Position numbers and translations under genes: made by a program. Shown piece after piece: positions 3,196 through 29,337 of a stretch of 64,000 bases of DNA; positions within the stretch are counted from its first letter, which is position 1; each line of letters starts with the position of its first letter. The stretch lies in assembly GCF_056746865.1 (NCBI RefSeq), contig NZ_CM163382.1. One strand, written 5' to 3'. Below the pieces are notes generated by a model. The model was not told where the DNA came from. It worked only from the letters and a program-made list of their open reading frames with translations, and ran no database searches.

Positions 3196-4325
3196 GCAAC
3201 GGCATTGTGATCATTGGTTCGGGCTTCGCCGCCCGCCAACTGGTGAAAAATATTCGCAAACAGGACGCCTGTATTCCATTAACCCTGATTGCCGCCGACA
3301 GCATGGATGAGTACAACAAACCGGACCTCAGCCATGTTATCAGCCAGAGGCAACGTGCCGATGACCTTACCCGCCAGACGGCGGGTGAATTTGCCGAGCA
3401 GTTTAATCTGCACCTGTTTCCGCACACCTGGATAATGGATATCGATGCCGAAGCCCATGTGGTGAAAAGCCAGAATAATCAGTGGCAATACGACAAGCTG
3501 GTGCTGGCAACTGGTGCCAGTGCCTTTGTCCCGCCAGTGCCTGGGCGTGAGTTAATGCTGACGTTAAATAGTCAGCAAGAGTATCGCGCCTGTGAAACGC
3601 AACTGCGGGATGCCCGACGCGTGTTGATTGTTGGCGGTGGCTTGATTGGTAGCGAACTGGCGATGGATTTTTGTCGTGCAGGCAAAGCGGTCACGCTAAT
3701 CGACAACGCTGCCAGTATTCTGGCGTCGTTAATGCCACCGGAAGTAAGCAGCCGCTTGCAGCATCGGTTGACGGAGATGGGCGTTCATCTGCTGTTGAAA
3801 TCTCAGTTGCAGGGGCTGGAAAAAACGGATTCTGGCATTCTGGCAACGCTGGACCGCCAGCGCAGCATCGAAGTGGATGCGGTAATTGCCGCCACCGGAC
3901 TGCGCCCGGAAACCGCCCTGGCACGACGCGCCGGGCTGACGATTAATCGCGGCGTTTGCGTCGATAGTTATCTGCAAACCAGTAATGCCGATATTTATGC
4001 GCTGGGCGATTGCACGGAAATTAACGGTCAGGTATTGCCGTTCCTCCAGCCGATTCAACTTAGCGCGATGGTGCTGGCAAAAAATCTTCTCGGCAATAAC
4101 ACGCCGCTGAAACTCCCTGCGATGCTGGTGAAAATCAAAACGCCAGAATTACCGCTGCATCTGGCAGGCGAAACCCAGCGTCAGGATTTACGCTGGCAAA
4201 TTAATACCGAACGCCAGGGAATGGTGGCGCGCGGTGTTGATGATGCCGACCAGCTTCGCGCCTTTGTGGTCAGTGAGGATCGGATGAAAGAGGCGTTTGG
4301 ATTGTTGAAAACGTTGCCGGTGTAG
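3192..4325 (+). CDS. norW: NADH:flavorubredoxin oxidoreductase
   Basis: 377-aa ORF overlapping the norV stop; N-terminal FAD/NAD fold GSGFAA, second dinucleotide motif GGGLIGSE. Confidence 0.95.
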
Positions 4326-4337
4326 GCATGGTTTTCT

Positions 4338-4358
4338 CCCTCGCCCAAAGGGCGAGGG
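4338..4358. terminator. hairpin between convergent norW and hypF
   Basis: ccctcgccc-aaa-gggcgaggg perfect 9-bp stem; T-run 4372-4376 is displaced, so strength uncertain. Confidence 0.4.
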
Positions 4359-4402
4359 GACTGTCCGCGCTCTTTTTACGCTTAGTTACGCCACATCCGC
4401 CA

Positions 4403-6643
4403 CTATGCAGCATGCAGGATGCGCGCCGCAGCAATAACCCCCTGCCCCAGAGACAAGCCGCCATCACCCGCCGGTAAACTCTGCGGAAAGAGTAATGTGA
4501 AATCAGCGAGATAATGCGCCAGGCGTGTACGCAGCAATCGGTTATGAGTAACCCCACCGCTAAATACCAGCGTAGTGATACCGCGCATCGTGGCCTGCTC
4601 ACGCATCAACGCGGCAAAACCCTGCGCCAGCGCATCATGAAACGCCCACGCGCGTTGATTAACCGGTGCCTGCCAGTTCAGCCACTGCTGCCAGAAAGTG
4701 ACGAGATCCAGTTGATTGTCCACCTGCGGCATCGTCACCGGATGCGTCACTCCGTCGCATGAGGCTGCGAGCGCCTCCAGAGCACAAGCCGCTTCACCTT
4801 CATAACTTAACGTGGCTGGCGCACAGCCCAGTGCCGCCGCCACAGCATCGAACAAACGTCCACACGATGACGCCAGCGGCGCGTTAATTCCACGCTCAAT
4901 GGCCCGCGCCAGCACGCTCCAGTTTTGCTGTTGCACACTTGCCGTTTCAGGGTAATTCTGCCACTCCGGCACAAAGCGCAGGCACTGCGCCAGCAGGTTA
5001 CGCCACGGCTGCTTTGCAGCCAAATCGCCCCCCGGAAGCGCCACCGCAGGCAAGCCGCCCAGGTGCTCACATTCGCGATAGTTCACCCGCAGGCATTCGC
5101 CGCCCCATAAAGCGCCGTTCTCCCCCATACCGATACCGTCGAGCGTCAACGCAATGACATCACCGCCATCCAGTGGCCAGTGATGTTCTGCCAGACACGC
5201 CGCCGCATGAGCATGATGATGCAGCACCGTTTGTGTCGGCAGATTCATTTCGCGCGCCCACTGGCTGGAGACATAGCCCGGGTGCGCGTCATGCACAACG
5301 TATTGCGGGGTGAAATCGTAGATGTTTTGCATCAGGCGTAACGCTTCGCGCCACTGCATCTGGATGCCATCGTCACTTAAATCGCCCAGATGCTGACTCA
5401 ACACCGCTTGTTCGCCGCGCACCAGGCAGAAGGTGTTTTTCAGATCCGCACCGAGACACAGCACAGGCGGAACATTTTTAAAGCCCGGAGGCAAAGCCAG
5501 CGCATCCGGCACATACCCCCGCGAACGGCGCAGCATTTCGCCGCTTTCGCGCACCACCGAATCATCCATCCGCTGCACGATGTCGCGGTTATGTAGCAAG
5601 AATCCGTCGGCAATGCCCTGCAAATCCGCCAGCGCCTGTTCGTTGCTGATAGCCGGTGGTTTACCGCTCAGGTTGCCGGAGGTCATCACCAGCGGACATT
5701 GCAGTTCCTGTAACAGCAAATGCTGAAGCGGGTTCGCAGGCAACATTACCCCGACTTCGTTAAGGCCAGGGGCGATATCATCACAAAGCTCAGGTACGTA
5801 TTTTTTATCCACCAGCACAATCGGCGCGGCGGGCGTGGTAAGCAACTGGCGCGCAGCGTCTGGTAAACCTTCTGCCACTGGCAACATGACCGCCAGCGGT
5901 TTCGCCGGGCGATGTTTGCGCGCCCGAAGTGTCGCCACCGCGTTACTGTTACACGCATCGCAGGCGAGATGAAATCCGCCAATCCCTTTGATGGCGACAA
6001 TGTTGCCCATTTTTAACTGTGCGATAGCCGCCTGTAATGCCGCCTCTTGTTCTGCATGTTCACCATGACTTACCCATTCAAGATGTGGGCCACACTCCGG
6101 GCAGGCCACCGGCTGGGCGTGGAAGCGACGATCGAGCGGGTCGCGATATTCTTTGTCACAGGCCGGACACAGCGGAAACGCCGCCATCACGGTAAACGGG
6201 CGGTCGTAAGGCATCGCGCGAATAATGGTGAAACGTGGGCCGCAGTGGGTACAGTTGATAAACGGATAACGATAACGCCGCTCGCCCGGGGTATTCATTT
6301 CGGCAAGACAGGCAGGGCAAGTAGCGGCATCGGGAACAATTTGCGTATTCATGGTGCCGCCTGTGCTCTGGCGTATAGTGAACTCGGTGGGCAGTTGTGA
6401 CCAGATAAACGGCTCACGCTCGACGCTATCAATACGCGCCAGCGGCGGGCAGTGCTGATGCAACTGCACAAGAAACGTTTCCGGGTCTTCCAGCAGCCGG
6501 ACTTCCACTCCATCGCCGTCATTACAGACATCGCCGTGAAGATTTAATTGCTGTGCCAGCTGCCAGACAAACGGACGAAAACCGACGCCCTGCACTTTGC
6601 CACGAATACGCAGTTGGACACCGCAAGATGTGTTTTTTGCCAT
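4403..6643 (-). CDS. hypF: [NiFe]-hydrogenase maturation carbamoyltransferase HypF
   Basis: long ORF (open to 6715); start taken at [25 protein letters not shown]; acylphosphatase N-terminus and zinc-finger CxxC pairs. Confidence 0.9.
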
Positions 6644-23554: not shown

Positions 23555-25633
23555 ATGTCATATACACCGATGAGTGATCTCGGACAACAAGGTTTGTTCG
23601 ACATCACTCGGACACTATTGCAGCAGCCCGATCTGGCCTCGCTGTGTGAGGCTCTTTCGCTACTGGTAAAGCGTTCTGCGCTCGCCGACAACGCGGCTAT
23701 TGTGTTGTGGCAAGCGCAGACTCAACGTGCGTCTTATTACGCGTCGCGTGAAAAAGACACCCCCATTAAATATGAAGACGAAACTGTTCTGGCACACGGT
23801 CCGGTACGCAGCATTTTGTCGCGCCCTGATACGCTGCATTGCAGTTACGAAGAATTTTGTGAAACCTGGCCGCAGCTGGCCGCAGGTGGGCTATACCCAA
23901 AATTTGGTCACTATTGCCTGATGCCACTGGCGGCAGAAGGGCATATTTTTGGTGGCTGTGAATTTATTCGTTATGACGATCGCCCCTGGAGCGAAAAAGA
24001 GTTCAATCGTCTGCAAACATTTACGCAGATCGTTTCTGTCGTCACCGAACAAATCCAGAGTCGAGTCGTTAACAATGTTGACTATGAGTTGTTATGCCGG
24101 GAACGCGATAACTTCCGCATCCTGGTCGCCATCACCAACGCGGTGCTTTCCCGCCTGGATATGGACGAACTGGTCAGCGAAGTCGCCAAAGAAATCCATT
24201 ACTATTTCGACATTGACGATATCAGCATTGTCTTACGCAGCCACCGTAAAAACAAACTCAACATCTACTCCACTCACTATCTTGATAAACAACATCCCGC
24301 CCACGAACAGAGCGAAGTCGATGAAGCCGGAACCCTCACCGAACGCGTGTTCAAAAGCAAAGAGATGCTGCTGATTAATCTCCACGAGCGGGACGATTTA
24401 GCCCCCTATGAACGCATGTTGTTCGACACCTGGGGCAACCAGATTCAAACCTTGTGCCTGTTACCGCTGATGTCTGGCGATACCATGCTGGGCGTGCTGA
24501 AACTGGCGCAATGCGAAGAGAAAGTGTTTACCACTACCAATTTGAATTTACTGCGCCAGATTGCCGAACGTGTGGCAATCGCTGTCGATAACGCCCTCGC
24601 CTATCAGGAAATCCATCGTCTGAAAGAACGGCTGGTTGATGAAAACCTCGCCCTGACCGAGCAGCTCAACAATGTTGATAGTGAATTTGGCGAGATTATT
24701 GGCCGCAGCGAAGCCATGTACAGCGTACTTAAACAAGTTGAAATGGTGGCGCAAAGTGACAGTACTGTTCTGATCCTCGGTGAAACTGGTACAGGTAAAG
24801 AGCTGATTGCCCGCGCGATCCATAATCTCAGTGGGCGTAATAATCGCCGCATGGTCAAAATGAACTGCGCGGCGATGCCTGCCGGATTGCTGGAGAGCGA
24901 TCTGTTTGGTCATGAGCGTGGGGCTTTTACCGGTGCCAGCGCCCAGCGTATCGGTCGTTTTGAACTGGCGGATAAAAGCTCCCTGTTCCTCGACGAAGTG
25001 GGCGATATGCCACTGGAGTTACAGCCGAAGTTGCTGCGTGTATTACAGGAACAGGAGTTTGAACGTCTCGGCAGCAACAAAATCATTCAGACGGACGTGC
25101 GTCTAATCGCCGCAACTAACCGCGATCTGAAAAAAATGGTCGCCGACCGAGAGTTCCGTAGCGATCTCTATTACCGCCTGAACGTATTCCCGATCCACCT
25201 GCCGCCACTACGCGAGCGTCCGGAAGATATTCCGCTGCTGGCGAAAGCCTTTACCTTCAAAATTGCCCGTCGTCTGGGGCGTAATATCGACAGCATTCCT
25301 GCCGAGACGCTGCGCACCTTGAGCAACATGGAGTGGCCGGGTAACGTACGCGAACTGGAAAACGTCATTGAGCGCGCAGTATTGCTGACACGCGGCAACG
25401 TGCTGCAGCTGTCATTGCCAGATATTGTTTTACCGGAACCAGAAACGCCGCCTGCCGCAACAGTTGTCGCTCAGGAGGGCGAAGATGAATATCAGTTGAT
25501 TGTTCGCGTGCTGAAAGAAACTAACGGCGTGGTTGCCGGGCCTAAAGGCGCTGCGCAACGTCTGGGGCTGAAACGCACGACCCTGCTGTCACGGATGAAG
25601 CGGCTTGGAATTGATAAATCGGCATTGATTTAA
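23555..25633 (+). CDS. fhlA: formate hydrogenlyase transcriptional activator FhlA
   Basis: 692 aa from MSYTPMSDLG; sigma54-activator AAA+ motifs GETGTGKE and GAFTGA; C-terminal HTH. Confidence 0.9.
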   Translation: MSYTPMSDLGQQGLFDITRTLLQQPDLASLCEALSLLVKRSALADNAAIVLWQAQTQRASYYASREKDTPIKYEDETVLAHGPVRSILSRPDTLHCSYEEFCETWPQLAAGGLYPKFGHYCLMPLAAEGHIFGGCEFIRYDDRPWSEKEFNRLQTFTQIVSVVTEQIQSRVVNNVDYELLCRERDNFRILVAITNAVLSRLDMDELVSEVAKEIHYYFDIDDISIVLRSHRKNKLNIYSTHYLDKQHPAHEQSEVDEAGTLTERVFKSKEMLLINLHERDDLAPYERMLFDTWGNQIQTLCLLPLMSGDTMLGVLKLAQCEEKVFTTTNLNLLRQIAERVAIAVDNALAYQEIHRLKERLVDENLALTEQLNNVDSEFGEIIGRSEAMYSVLKQVEMVAQSDSTVLILGETGTGKELIARAIHNLSGRNNRRMVKMNCAAMPAGLLESDLFGHERGAFTGASAQRIGRFELADKSSLFLDEVGDMPLELQPKLLRVLQEQEFERLGSNKIIQTDVRLIAATNRDLKKMVADREFRSDLYYRLNVFPIHLPPLRERPEDIPLLAKAFTFKIARRLGRNIDSIPAETLRTLSNMEWPGNVRELENVIERAVLLTRGNVLQLSLPDIVLPEPETPPAATVVAQEGEDEYQLIVRVLKETNGVVAGPKGAAQRLGLKRTTLLSRMKRLGIDKSALI

Positions 25634-25677
25634 CAGATGTGGTTATACTCGATCAACATTCAATGAAAGGAGGCAGT

Positions 25678-26106
25678 ATGGCAGTTTCAGCAAGAAATCA
25701 ATTAACCGGAACGGTTAGCGCAGTAGCAATGGGCGCTGTGAATGATGAAGTAGAACTGACGCTGGCAGGTGGTGCAAAACTGGTGGCAATTGTGACTCAC
25801 AGCAGCCAGCAGGCTCTTGGTCTGGCAAAAGGGAAAGAAGCGATTGCCCTGATTAAAGCCCCGTGGGTCACGCTGGCAACGGAAGACTGTGGACTGAAAT
25901 TCTCTGCTCGCAACCAATTTGCTGGCAGCGTGTCGACAATCACCGAAGGCGCAGTGAACGCCACTGTCCATATCAAAACGGATGCGGGTTTTGAAATTGT
26001 GGCAGTGGTAACAAATGAAAGTCAGGATGAAATGAAACTCACCACTGGCTCGCGCGTTATTGCATTGATCAAAGCATCAGCCATCCTGATTGCCACCAAA
26101 GCGTAA
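25678..26106 (+). CDS. molybdate-binding protein with two tandem Mop/TOBE domains
   Basis: 142 aa from MAVSARNQLTGTV with RBS aaaggagg; two ~70-aa repeats (SARNQ...ALIKA). Confidence 0.7.
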   Translation: MAVSARNQLTGTVSAVAMGAVNDEVELTLAGGAKLVAIVTHSSQQALGLAKGKEAIALIKAPWVTLATEDCGLKFSARNQFAGSVSTITEGAVNATVHIKTDAGFEIVAVVTNESQDEMKLTTGSRVIALIKASAILIATKA

Positions 26107-26144
26107 ACGCCTTATTTGCCGGAGAGTATGGCTCTCCGGCAGAT

Positions 26145-26489
26145 TTATTTCTTTGGACGATATTTTTCTGGCAACTCCGGCACCGGACGCTTGTCATCGA
26201 TGAGATGACGCACGGTTAAGATCGGATGACGCCACAGCATTCTCGGCCCGGCCCAACGCATAATCTGTTTCATCTCTTCACGCTTTGCAGGCTGGTAACA
26301 GTGCACCGGACACTGCTTACAGGCTGGTTTCTCTTCGCCGAACACACATTTATCCAGCCGCTTTTGCGCGTAGGCAAACAGCGCGTCGTAATGCTCCGGC
26401 TCCGCTGACGCCTGCGGGCATTTCGCTTGATAAAGATCGATCATTTTTTTAATCGTCAGTTTTTCACGAGAGATACGCTTGCCGGACAT
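26145..26489 (-). CDS. ygbA: YgbA family protein (NsrR-regulon member)
   Basis: 114-aa Cys-rich ORF (CPQASAEPEH...CKQCPVHCY) at the position of E. coli ygbA. Confidence 0.8.
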   Translation of the reverse strand: MSGKRISREKLTIKKMIDLYQAKCPQASAEPEHYDALFAYAQKRLDKCVFGEEKPACKQCPVHCYQPAKREEMKQIMRWAGPRMLWRHPILTVRHLIDDKRPVPELPEKYRPKK

Positions 26490-26506
26490 GCTGCCTCCAT
26501 CTCATT

Positions 26507-26535
26507 AAGATGCATTTATATTACAACTTAATCTT
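26507..26535. promoter_or_regulatory. NsrR-box-like imperfect inverted repeat upstream of ygbA
   Basis: aagatgcatttatattacaacttaatctt about 20 bp upstream of the ygbA start. Confidence 0.4.
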
Positions 26536-26775
26536 AAAGGGCACTATGACTCTAAAGAAGAAGGGTTAGCCAACCGATACAATTTTGCGTACTTGCTTCA
26601 TAAGCATCACGCAAAAGCTGCAAAACAGCATCTTTCCCGGAATCACCATCAAGAACTCGCCGTTCGCTTCTTCCCCTGAAATGATTAACTCCGGTATCAT
26701 GTGCGCCTTATGTGATTACAACGAAAATAAAAACCATCACACCCCATTTAATATCAGGGAACCGGACATAACCCC

Positions 26776-29337
26776 ATGAGTGCAATAGAAAATTTCGATG
26801 CCCATACGCCCATGATGCAGCAGTATCTCAAGCTGAAAGCCCAGCATCCCGAGATCCTGCTGTTTTACCGGATGGGTGATTTTTATGAACTGTTTTATGA
26901 CGACGCAAAACGCGCGTCGCAACTGCTGGATATTTCACTGACCAAACGCGGTGCTTCGGCGGGAGAGCCGATCCCGATGGCGGGGATCCCCTACCATGCG
27001 GTGGAAAACTACCTCGCCAAACTGGTGAATCAGGGCGAGTCCGTTGCCATCTGCGAACAAATTGGCGATCCGGCGACCAGCAAAGGTCCGGTTGAGCGCA
27101 AAGTTGTGCGTATCGTTACGCCGGGCACCATCAGCGATGAAGCCCTGTTACAAGAGCGCCAGGACAATCTGCTGGCGGCTATCTGGCAGGACAGCAAAGG
27201 TTTCGGCTACGCGACGCTGGATATCAGTTCCGGTCGTTTTCGCCTGAGCGAACCGGCTGACCGGGAAACGATGGCGGCAGAACTGCAACGCACTAATCCG
27301 GCGGAACTGCTATATGCAGAAGATTTTGCTGAAATGTCGTTAATTGAAGGTCGTCGCGGTCTGCGCCGTCGTCCGCTGTGGGAGTTTGAAATCGACACCG
27401 CGCGCCAGCAGTTGAATCTGCAATTTGGCACCCGCGATCTGGTCGGTTTTGGCGTCGAGAACGCGCCGCGCGGACTTTGTGCTGCCGGTTGTCTGTTGCA
27501 GTATGCGAAAGATACTCAACGCACGACCCTGCCGCATATTCGTTCTATCACCATGGAACGTGAGCAGGACAGCATCATTATGGATGCCGCGACACGTCGT
27601 AACCTGGAAATTACTCAGAACCTGGCGGGCGGTGCGGAAAACACGCTGGCTTCAGTGCTCGACTGCACTGTAACGCCAATGGGTAGTCGTATGCTGAAAC
27701 GCTGGCTGCATATGCCAGTGCGCGATACCCGCGTGTTGCTTGAGCGCCAGCAAACTATTGGCGCATTGCAGGATTTCACCGCCGAGCTACAGCCGGTGCT
27801 GCGTCAGGTCGGCGACCTGGAACGTATTCTGGCACGTCTGGCTTTACGAACTGCTCGCCCACGCGATCTGGCCCGTATGCGTCACGCTTTCCAGCAACTG
27901 CCGGAGCTGCGTGCGCAGTTAGAAAATGTCGATAGCGCTCCGGTACAGGCGCTGCGTGAGAAGATGGGTGAGTTTGCCGAACTGCGCGATCTGCTGGAGC
28001 GGGCCATTATCGACACACCGCCGGTACTGGTGCGCGACGGTGGTGTTATCGCATCGGGCTATAACGAAGAGCTGGATGAGTGGCGCGCGCTGGCTGACGG
28101 CGCGACCGATTATCTGGAGCGTCTGGAAGTCCGCGAGCGTGAACGTACCGGCCTGGACACGCTGAAAGTCGGATTTAACGCGGTGCATGGTTATTACATT
28201 CAGATCAGCCGTGGACAAAGCCATCTGGCACCGATTAACTACATGCGCCGCCAGACGCTGAAAAACGCCGAACGCTACATTATTCCAGAGCTAAAAGAGT
28301 ACGAAGATAAAGTTCTCACCTCAAAAGGCAAAGCACTGGCACTGGAAAAACAGCTTTATGAAGAGCTGTTCGACCTGCTGTTGCCGCATCTGGAAGCGTT
28401 GCAACAGAGCGCAAGCGCACTGGCAGAACTTGATGTGCTGGTTAACCTGGCGGAGCGGGCCTATACCCTGAACTACACCTGCCCGACCTTCATTGATAAA
28501 CCGGGTATTCGCATCACCGAAGGCCGCCATCCGGTGGTTGAACAGGTACTGAACGAGCCATTTATCGCCAACCCGCTGAACCTGTCGCCGCAGCGTCGCA
28601 TGTTGATCATTACCGGTCCGAATATGGGCGGTAAAAGTACCTATATGCGCCAGACCGCACTGATTGCGCTGATGGCCTACATCGGCAGCTATGTACCGGC
28701 ACAAAAAGTCGAGATTGGACCTATCGATCGCATCTTTACCCGCGTAGGGGCAGCGGATGATCTGGCATCCGGGCGTTCAACCTTTATGGTGGAAATGACC
28801 GAAACCGCCAATATTTTACATAACGCCACCGAGTACAGTCTGGTGCTGATGGATGAGATTGGGCGTGGAACGTCCACTTACGATGGTCTGTCGCTGGCGT
28901 GGGCGTGCGCTGAAAATCTGGCGAATAAGATTAAGGCATTGACGTTGTTTGCTACCCATTATTTCGAGCTGACCCAGTTACCGGAGAAAATGGAAGGCGT
29001 GGCTAACGTGCATCTCGATGCACTGGAGCACGGCGACACCATTGCCTTTATGCACAGCGTGCAGGATGGCGCGGCGAGCAAAAGCTACGGCCTGGCGGTT
29101 GCAGCTCTGGCGGGCGTGCCAAAAGAGGTTATTAAGCGCGCACGGCAAAAACTGCGTGAGCTGGAAAGCATTTCGCCGAACGCCGCCGCTACGCAAGTAG
29201 ATGGTACGCAAATGTCTTTGCTGTCAGTGCCAGAAGAAACGTCGCCTGCGGTCGAAGCACTGGAAAATCTCGACCCGGATTCACTGACTCCGCGTCAGGC
29301 GCTGGAGTGGATTTATCGCTTGAAGAGTCTGGTGTAA
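26776..29337 (+). CDS. mutS: DNA mismatch repair protein MutS
   Basis: 853-aa ORF; Walker [10 protein letters not shown]. Confidence 0.95.

Follow-up and report, generated by a model that had tools for sequence, protein, structure and literature searches.

The closest described relative of the protein examined here is ModG of Azotobacter vinelandii (PDB 1H9J, 1H9K and 1H9M), a cytoplasmic protein of ~14 kDa that consists of two Mop/TOBE domains only and forms a trimer with eight molybdates. Its gene belongs to the mod locus, and the protein serves nitrogenase. The same tandem-Mop fold occurs as the C-terminal di-Mop domain of E. coli ModE (1H9R/1H9S, 1O7L and 1B9M), a protein that also has an HTH DNA-binding domain. 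Mop/MopII (Clostridium pasteurianum, 1GUG; Sporomusa ovata, 1FR3) and the 'tungbindin' Tub (Eubacterium limosum, 9BEB) are 7-kDa single-domain chains that form hexamers. Across Tub, Mop and ModG, the oxyanion ligands are the backbone of Ala20-Val21-Asn22 at the type-1 site and Ser4, Arg6, Ser40, Lys60 and Ala61 at the type-2 site (PMC11980592).

A gene for a protein of this family, hereafter molbindin, lies between fhlA and ygbA in the stretch of E. coli DNA analyzed here (64,000 nt from contig NZ_CM163382.1 of RefSeq assembly GCF_056746865.1, referred to as the window). The gene itself is already known: about 1,900 RefSeq E. coli genomes carry an annotation for it, and it was noted in a 2020 study of SPI-1 evolution and of the fhlA/-/mutS island hotspot, which listed it as the transcriptional regulator modE and counted it among the single-gene insertions at this locus (Lerminiaux et al. 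2020, PMC7232297). Literature searches returned no functional study of enterobacterial molbindin covering expression, binding or phenotype, and the protein has apparently not been characterized by anyone so far. What we add is the correct family assignment, the polarity of the difference between strains (an ancestral gene, deleted in the K-12 lineage) and the frequencies of the two alleles.

A gene for a 142-aa protein directly downstream of fhlA

The genes at this locus and the ribosome-binding site of molbindin are arranged as follows in the window:

23555–25633, + strand: fhlA (formate hydrogenlyase activator), located upstream of molbindin and probably co-transcribed with it
25667–25673, + strand: Shine-Dalgarno sequence AAGGAGG, 4 nt 5′ of the ATG at 25678
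25678–26106, + strand: molbindin CDS (142 aa, di-Mop, ModG-like; stop codon included), from the ORF list, the sequence, the RefSeq CDS and Pfam/NCBIfam
26145–26489, − strand: ygbA (YgbA_NO family), the convergent downstream gene, 114 aa in the window and 117 aa in K-12

The initial annotation placed a 142-aa product at 25639–26106. Both the ORF and the protein length are borne out, but the start is not: 25639 is the GTG of the maximal frame in the six-frame ORF list (155 aa, 25639–26106, + strand), whereas the sequence places the start at the ATG at 25678, giving 142 aa and a 429-nt CDS. We assign this start because it is that of the RefSeq CDS of E. coli 118UI and yields the 142-aa length of nearly all orthologues. 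Strain 118UI is 100% identical to the window over 25300–26500, and its CDS (WP_000301062.1, 'TOBE domain-containing protein') occupies the same position in CFT073. A strong ribosome-binding site shortly past fhlA, also claimed at the outset, is indeed present. Since the fhlA stop codon ends at 25633, the AAGGAGG falls within a spacer of 44 bp, and its GGAG is conserved in place across 46 distinct upstream sequences.

Comparison with 50 orthologous CDSs yielded dN/dS values of 0.02–0.09, and the CFT073 allele differs from the window by seven synonymous and no non-synonymous changes. The length of 142 aa is near-universal among orthologues across genera. These comparisons indicate that molbindin is under strong purifying selection. 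A chance ORF or a pseudogene was rejected on the basis of the dN/dS range and of the 1,889 of 1,892 E. coli carriers with at least 80% of the gene segment. The ORF is therefore a real gene.

Beyond ygbA, the ygbA–mutS interval contains a 44-aa ORF (26566–26700, − strand), which RefSeq lists as 'hypothetical protein' in 118UI (WP_000611938.1) and K-12 (WP_000611932.1).

Two Mop domains with intact ligand positions

Two TOBE domains are detected in molbindin by Pfam (E 8.8e-35) and two Mop domains by NCBIfam (TIGR00638, E 4.1e-42; 142 bits against a cut-off of 55), while Pfam finds no N-terminal HTH DNA-binding domain. The architecture is exactly two tandem Mop/TOBE domains (PF03459/TIGR00638), and 142 aa leaves no room for a third. 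Alignment to ModG, ModE and Tub places the domains and their predicted ligand residues as follows:

25678–25881, + strand: Mop/TOBE domain 1 (about residues 1–68), with S4, R6, A20-V21-N22, T40, K60 and A61
25894–26103, + strand: Mop/TOBE domain 2 (about residues 73–142), with S76, R78, A92-V93-N94, T112, K132 and A133

The best PDB sequence match is A. vinelandii ModG (1H9J; phmmer E 5e-33, residues 1–140), followed by the di-Mop domain of E. coli ModE and then by the single-domain proteins Tub, MopII and Mop. In a joint alignment, molbindin is 49% identical to ModG over its full length and 37% identical to the ModE di-Mop domain. Its AlphaFold2 monomer model (mean pLDDT 95.5) likewise has ModG 1H9J as the top PDB match by Foldseek, with a TM score of 0.95 and an rmsd of 1.3 Å. 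Pfam, NCBIfam and the ModG match thus agree with the first description of the product as a 142-aa di-Mop molbindin with two TOBE/Mop repeats.

Both domains of molbindin retain every ligand position known from Tub, Mop and ModG, and these positions are invariant or nearly so among its orthologues. By contrast, the alignment of ModE with molbindin and ModG shows that the ligand motifs of the second ModE Mop domain are gone (NADN, VPVN and FNAD at these places). Because ModE has lost the second set and molbindin retains both, we consider molbindin ModG-like rather than ModE-like. In architecture, modeled fold and the ligand motifs of both domains, it has the features expected of a ModG-type di-Mop protein.

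This assignment bears on the names 'modE', used in PMC7232297, and 'molybdate transport system regulatory protein', used in some source annotations, which would make the gene a truncated or degenerate modE encoding a transcriptional regulator. Molbindin is homologous to the C-terminal half of ModE, matching the ModE model NF007957 over profile positions 124–261 of 263 only. The match scores 88 bits, however, far under the equivalog cut-off of 369; the N-terminal HTH is absent, the protein is nearer to ModG than to ModE, and its 142-aa length has been kept across genera under strong purifying selection. We rejected a truncated modE on these grounds and regard it as scarcely credible. The misnaming in the literature and in some annotations is thereby put right.

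Conserved position and congruent divergence across Enterobacterales

An orthologue scan with one genome per species gave 46 Enterobacterales loci with molbindin. In 36 of these, fhlA lies 36–104 bp upstream on the same strand, with hypE before it. The fhlA-linked loci include E. albertii, a cryptic Escherichia, seven Citrobacter, Klebsiella, Raoultella, Kluyvera, Pluralibacter, Yokenella, Lelliottia, Enterobacter and Kosakonia, and fhlA and molbindin are never separated among them. The other side of the gene is less constant: ygbA adjoins molbindin in only 19 of the 46 loci, the junction being interrupted or rearranged in the remaining 27. E. fergusonii has the order hypBCDE-fhlA-molbindin-ygbA.

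Synonymous divergence from the window was compared between molbindin and its neighbors:

E. albertii: dS of molbindin 0.36; of hypE/fhlA/ygbA 0.55/0.66/0.33
Cryptic Escherichia: dS of molbindin 0.23; of hypE/fhlA/ygbA 0.18/0.20/0.39
Citrobacter: dS of molbindin ~1.0; of hypE/fhlA/ygbA 1.05 to saturation

In all three, the dS of molbindin tracks that of hypE, fhlA and ygbA. The GC content of the gene is 50.1%, against 52.4% for the window, and its borders carry no repeats or mobility genes. The conserved position in outgroups, together with the congruent dS, indicates that molbindin is ancestral at this site and that the K-12 state is a loss. Molbindin is thus an old enterobacterial gene and the K-12 allele a net loss of ~465 bp.

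The initial annotation had described the gene as inserted between fhlA and ygbA. The polarity of that statement is wrong, as the same gene order is found in outgroups and dS is congruent with the flanks. A recent horizontal insertion into some E. coli lineages would account for the absence of the gene from K-12 and O157, the fhlA–mutS interval is a known hotspot of island gain (PMC7232297), and one Salmonella copy has a mobile-looking context beside an IS21 fragment. Yet the gene stands at this place and in this orientation in E. albertii, E. fergusonii, the cryptic Escherichia and more than 10 other genera, its dS is congruent with that of the flanking genes, its GC content is host-typical, and neither repeats nor mobility genes mark its borders, making such an insertion very improbable. 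A genomic island or insertion at fhlA/-/mutS was accordingly rejected, given the occupied site in outgroups, the host-like GC and the borders free of mobility signatures.

The E. fergusonii loci (L055/L056, 2879–5812) show a pattern of their own. Here hypE has a dS of 0.25 against the window, while fhlA, molbindin and ygbA have values of 1.0–3.6; FhlA is 696 aa and YgbA 120 aa long, and sugar-transport genes follow ygbA. The fhlA–ygbA segment of this species looks as if recombination had replaced it with a foreign allele.

Orthologues in other genomic contexts

In Serratia, Cedecea, Edwardsiella and some Salmonella, the molbindin orthologue sits elsewhere, in unrelated contexts. The Salmonella enterica orthologue (L053 6001–6429, L054 4025–4453) is 89% identical at the amino acid level and lies away from fhlA, flanked by an IS21 IstB fragment or a YdgH-like gene on one side and by a CaiF/GrlA-like regulator with a fimbrial usher cluster on the other. 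Its nucleotide homology to the window begins only ~40–60 nt upstream of the ATG, a stretch in which the GGCTATACT box and the ribosome-binding site are kept. This looks like a relocated or acquired copy; being away from fhlA, the Salmonella copy examined says nothing about the fhlA locus itself.

Klebsiella, Raoultella and Enterobacter-like species carry a four-gene sitABCD-type metal ABC transporter between molbindin and ygbA (L017 5618–9049; also L012, L015, L019, L022 and L033), consisting of a ZnuA-family binding protein, an ABC ATPase and two ABC-3 permeases. Its placement agrees with the published view of the interval as an island hotspot. In Phytobacter and Kosakonia sp. S29 (L036, L041 and L048; ~3858–5803), hypE, molbindin and ygbA follow one another in this order. 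There, no fhlA is detectable within the 10-kb locus, and molbindin still ends the hyp cluster. None of the 46 loci has mod genes near molbindin.

Two alleles in E. coli

The 477-bp molbindin segment is present in 1,892 of 5,426 complete E. coli genomes (1,889 at ≥80% coverage), and a K-12-type fhlA/ygbA junction in 3,506 of them (≥80% coverage, 97–100% identity). Together these account for 5,398 of the 5,426, indicating that two alleles cover essentially all strains. In K-12, ygbA follows fhlA after 36 bp with no gene between, as the initial annotation had stated.

Molbindin is carried by CFT073, APEC O1, EC958 and other ST131 strains, ATCC 25922 and 118UI, and is absent from K-12 and O157:H7. 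All of these carriers except 118UI are strains that we take to belong to phylogroup B2. Carrier 118UI is ST69, phylogroup D (PMC8900328), and IAI39 is a further carrier (PMC7232297). On the basis of these named strains (CFT073, APEC O1, EC958, ATCC 25922, 118UI and IAI39 on one side, K-12 and O157 on the other), strains of phylogroups B2, D and F keep the gene, including the ST69-like phylogroup D strain of the window. About 35% of complete E. coli, among them the ExPEC lineages ST131, ST69, CFT073 and APEC O1, thus encode a predicted cytoplasmic molybdate-binding protein that is missing from the laboratory model.

Rare disrupted carrier alleles were noted among H11 (NZ_OU701449.1) and H130 (NZ_CP070152.1): an IS26 is present at the locus in one genome, and in another just 36% of the segment is left. 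In the same E. coli genome search, one plasmid record matched the fhlA/ygbA junction region.

The difference between the alleles can be placed from the junction and the allele counts:

25635–26108 (approximate limits), no strand assigned: segment missing from K-12-type E. coli, net difference ~465 bp

Identity between K-12 and the window extends through the fhlA stop codon plus one base (...TTTAAC, window 25634), and the alignment resumes at about the molbindin stop codon (TAAAC). The next ~45 bp (26109–26154, compared with K-12 locus L001, 1836–1889), which cover the terminator and the ygbA 3′ end, are far more divergent between the alleles than the flanks. Within them, compensatory changes distinguish the hairpin stems of the two E. 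coli alleles (GGAGAG/CTCTCC versus GGACAG/CTGTCC), and an 8-bp indel makes K-12 YgbA three residues longer (…KKPHE; 117 versus 114 aa). The hairpin after molbindin in Citrobacter amalonaticus (L011) has exactly the same 3′ arm as the K-12 hairpin (CCTGTCCGGCATACT).

The K-12/O157:H7 lineage lost molbindin, most likely by one small deletion. No E. coli genome has both molbindin and a K-12-type hairpin, all carriers matching a chimeric query at only 84%. As there is no intermediate allele among these genomes, the K-12 allele did not arise from an extant carrier allele in a single simple step; its source may be another ancestral haplotype, or recombination may have brought it in. Either way, K-12 does not represent the ancestral state of the fhlA–ygbA junction.

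Transcription signals around molbindin

Two candidate signals flank the gene:

25644–25649, + strand: TATACT, a −10-like box within a conserved GG(T/C)TATA(C/A) motif, spotted by eye
26114–26154, + strand: intrinsic terminator from the terminator scan, with a 14-bp stem (26114–26144) and a T-rich tail, between the convergent molbindin and ygbA

The terminator has a predicted folding energy of −23.1 kcal/mol (z = −5.6), and in K-12 the equivalent hairpin directly follows fhlA. Between fhlA and molbindin, the same scan detects no terminator, and the spacer folds like shuffled sequence (z = 0.2). With a terminator only after molbindin and none before it, read-through from fhlA is the simplest expectation. 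The gene arrangement suggests that molbindin belongs to the hyp-fhlA transcription unit, and would be made when the Mo-enzyme FdhF is made, because its linkage to fhlA is unbroken in 36 species loci while its junction with ygbA is broken in 27 of 46.

The TATACT-type box is kept in Escherichia, Citrobacter, Kluyvera and Pluralibacter, as well as in the Salmonella copy no longer beside fhlA. A two-hexamer consensus scan of 25200–26800 returned no sigma-70 promoter, and by eye there is no ModE-type palindromic operator or inverted repeat around the box. A promoter of molbindin's own at this position is possible, the box being only a hint of one.

Proposed role in molybdate buffering

By analogy with ModG, molbindin is most likely a molybdate (or tungstate) buffer that is read through from hyp-fhlA. 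As a free-standing small cytoplasmic protein, it would assemble as a ModG-like trimer, with its Mop domains arranged as a pseudo-hexamer, and could take up as many as eight MoO4(2-) or WO4(2-) ions. The sites on the three-fold axis would use the backbone NH of the A-V-N loops, and those between domains the S-A-R-N, T and K-A motifs. Molbindin would in this way buffer or store the oxyanion in the cytoplasm. Probably transcribed by read-through from fhlA, to which a weak promoter of its own may add, the molybdate store would accompany Mo-dependent FdhF under anaerobic, formate-inducing conditions. Oligomeric state, ligand binding, co-transcription and Mo supply to FDH-H are all properties that we infer for molbindin.

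Maximal expression of hyc and fdhF needs molybdate and ModE along with FhlA and formate (PMC3149613). Because formate hydrogenlyase (FHL) expression has this requirement and molbindin ends the hyp-fhlA unit, a role in Mo supply or sensing is plausible, including the supply of molybdenum to FHL, in keeping with the functional link that the initial annotation had put forward. If molbindin buffers Mo for FDH-H or other molybdoenzymes, it could add to strain differences in how formate and hydrogen are metabolized anaerobically when metal is limiting.

A more specific proposal is that molbindin is a working ancestral component of FHL, which holds molybdate for FdhF maturation or feeds the FHL molybdate signal. 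We consider this unlikely. If true, the K-12/B/O157 lineage, where FHL was studied, would be a natural deletion mutant of an FHL component, and carriers (B2, D and F, with many extraintestinal pathogens) would have better FDH-H/H2 metabolism under molybdate shortage or in the presence of tungstate. The buffer model, too, has points against it. Molbindin is missing from two thirds of E. coli and from the Salmonella fhlA locus, indicating that it is dispensable. Its linkage to fhlA could be positional inertia, the orthologue being found elsewhere in Serratia, Cedecea, Edwardsiella and some Salmonella.

The fixed linkage would instead be explained if molbindin were a regulatory molybdate sensor, passing molybdate to ModE or FhlA or contacting them, and so tuning FHL and the hyc and fdhF regulon. 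The strict association with fhlA in 36 species loci, the need of FHL expression for molybdate and ModE besides FhlA and formate (PMC3149613), and a fold identical to that of the ModE sensing domain are all in line with such a sensor. Molbindin, however, has no DNA-binding or interaction domain; both of its domains keep full ligand sites, like the storage protein ModG, whereas the second domain of ModE has lost them. Moreover, K-12 regulates FHL normally without the gene, and the 10-kb locus of Phytobacter, in which molbindin comes after hypE, has no fhlA. We therefore give the sensor a low probability.

Alternatively, molbindin may prefer tungstate (a 'TudG'-type protein) and sequester tungstate that poisons molybdoenzymes such as FDH-H. 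To our knowledge, E. coli has no dedicated tungstate transporter (TupABC), which speaks against this preference, and the sequence does not distinguish Mo from W specificity. On the other hand, the single-domain tungstate store Tub has every ligand position in common with molbindin, Mop-family sites bind both oxyanions, and predictions often associate di-Mop proteins of gut microbes with tungsten (PMC11980592). A preference for tungstate seems improbable to us, and a ModG-type buffer remains our preferred reading.

Comparison with known systems

Molbindin resembles ModG in its domain content, in sequence (49% identity), in fold (TM 0.95) and in the S-A-R-N, A-V-N, T and K-A motifs of both domains. 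It differs in genomic setting, standing at the end of hyp-fhlA rather than in a mod locus under ModE control; we regard the mod-locus setting as belonging to the A. vinelandii gene, not to the protein family as such. In addition, the host of molbindin does not fix nitrogen and so has no nitrogenase for it to supply. And whereas ModG forms a trimer with eight molybdates, molbindin is known here from its sequence and a monomer model.

With the di-Mop domain of E. coli ModE, molbindin shares the tandem-Mop fold (TM 0.88–0.90, 37% identity) and the ligand motifs of the first domain; those of the second are kept in molbindin only. Unlike ModE, it has no HTH and scores under the ModE equivalog cut-off. 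Each of its domains is 30–40% identical to Mop, MopII and Tub, with the same ligand numbering (Ser4, Arg6, Ala20-Val21-Asn22, Ser/Thr40, Lys60 and Ala61). Those proteins are hexamers of single-domain chains, while molbindin consists of two fused domains, and a trimer of it would give the same six-domain particle. Finally, in contrast to the reading of Lerminiaux et al. 2020, in which this gene is modE and an insertion, our comparisons point to a ModG-like gene that is ancestral at this position and was lost in the K-12 lineage.
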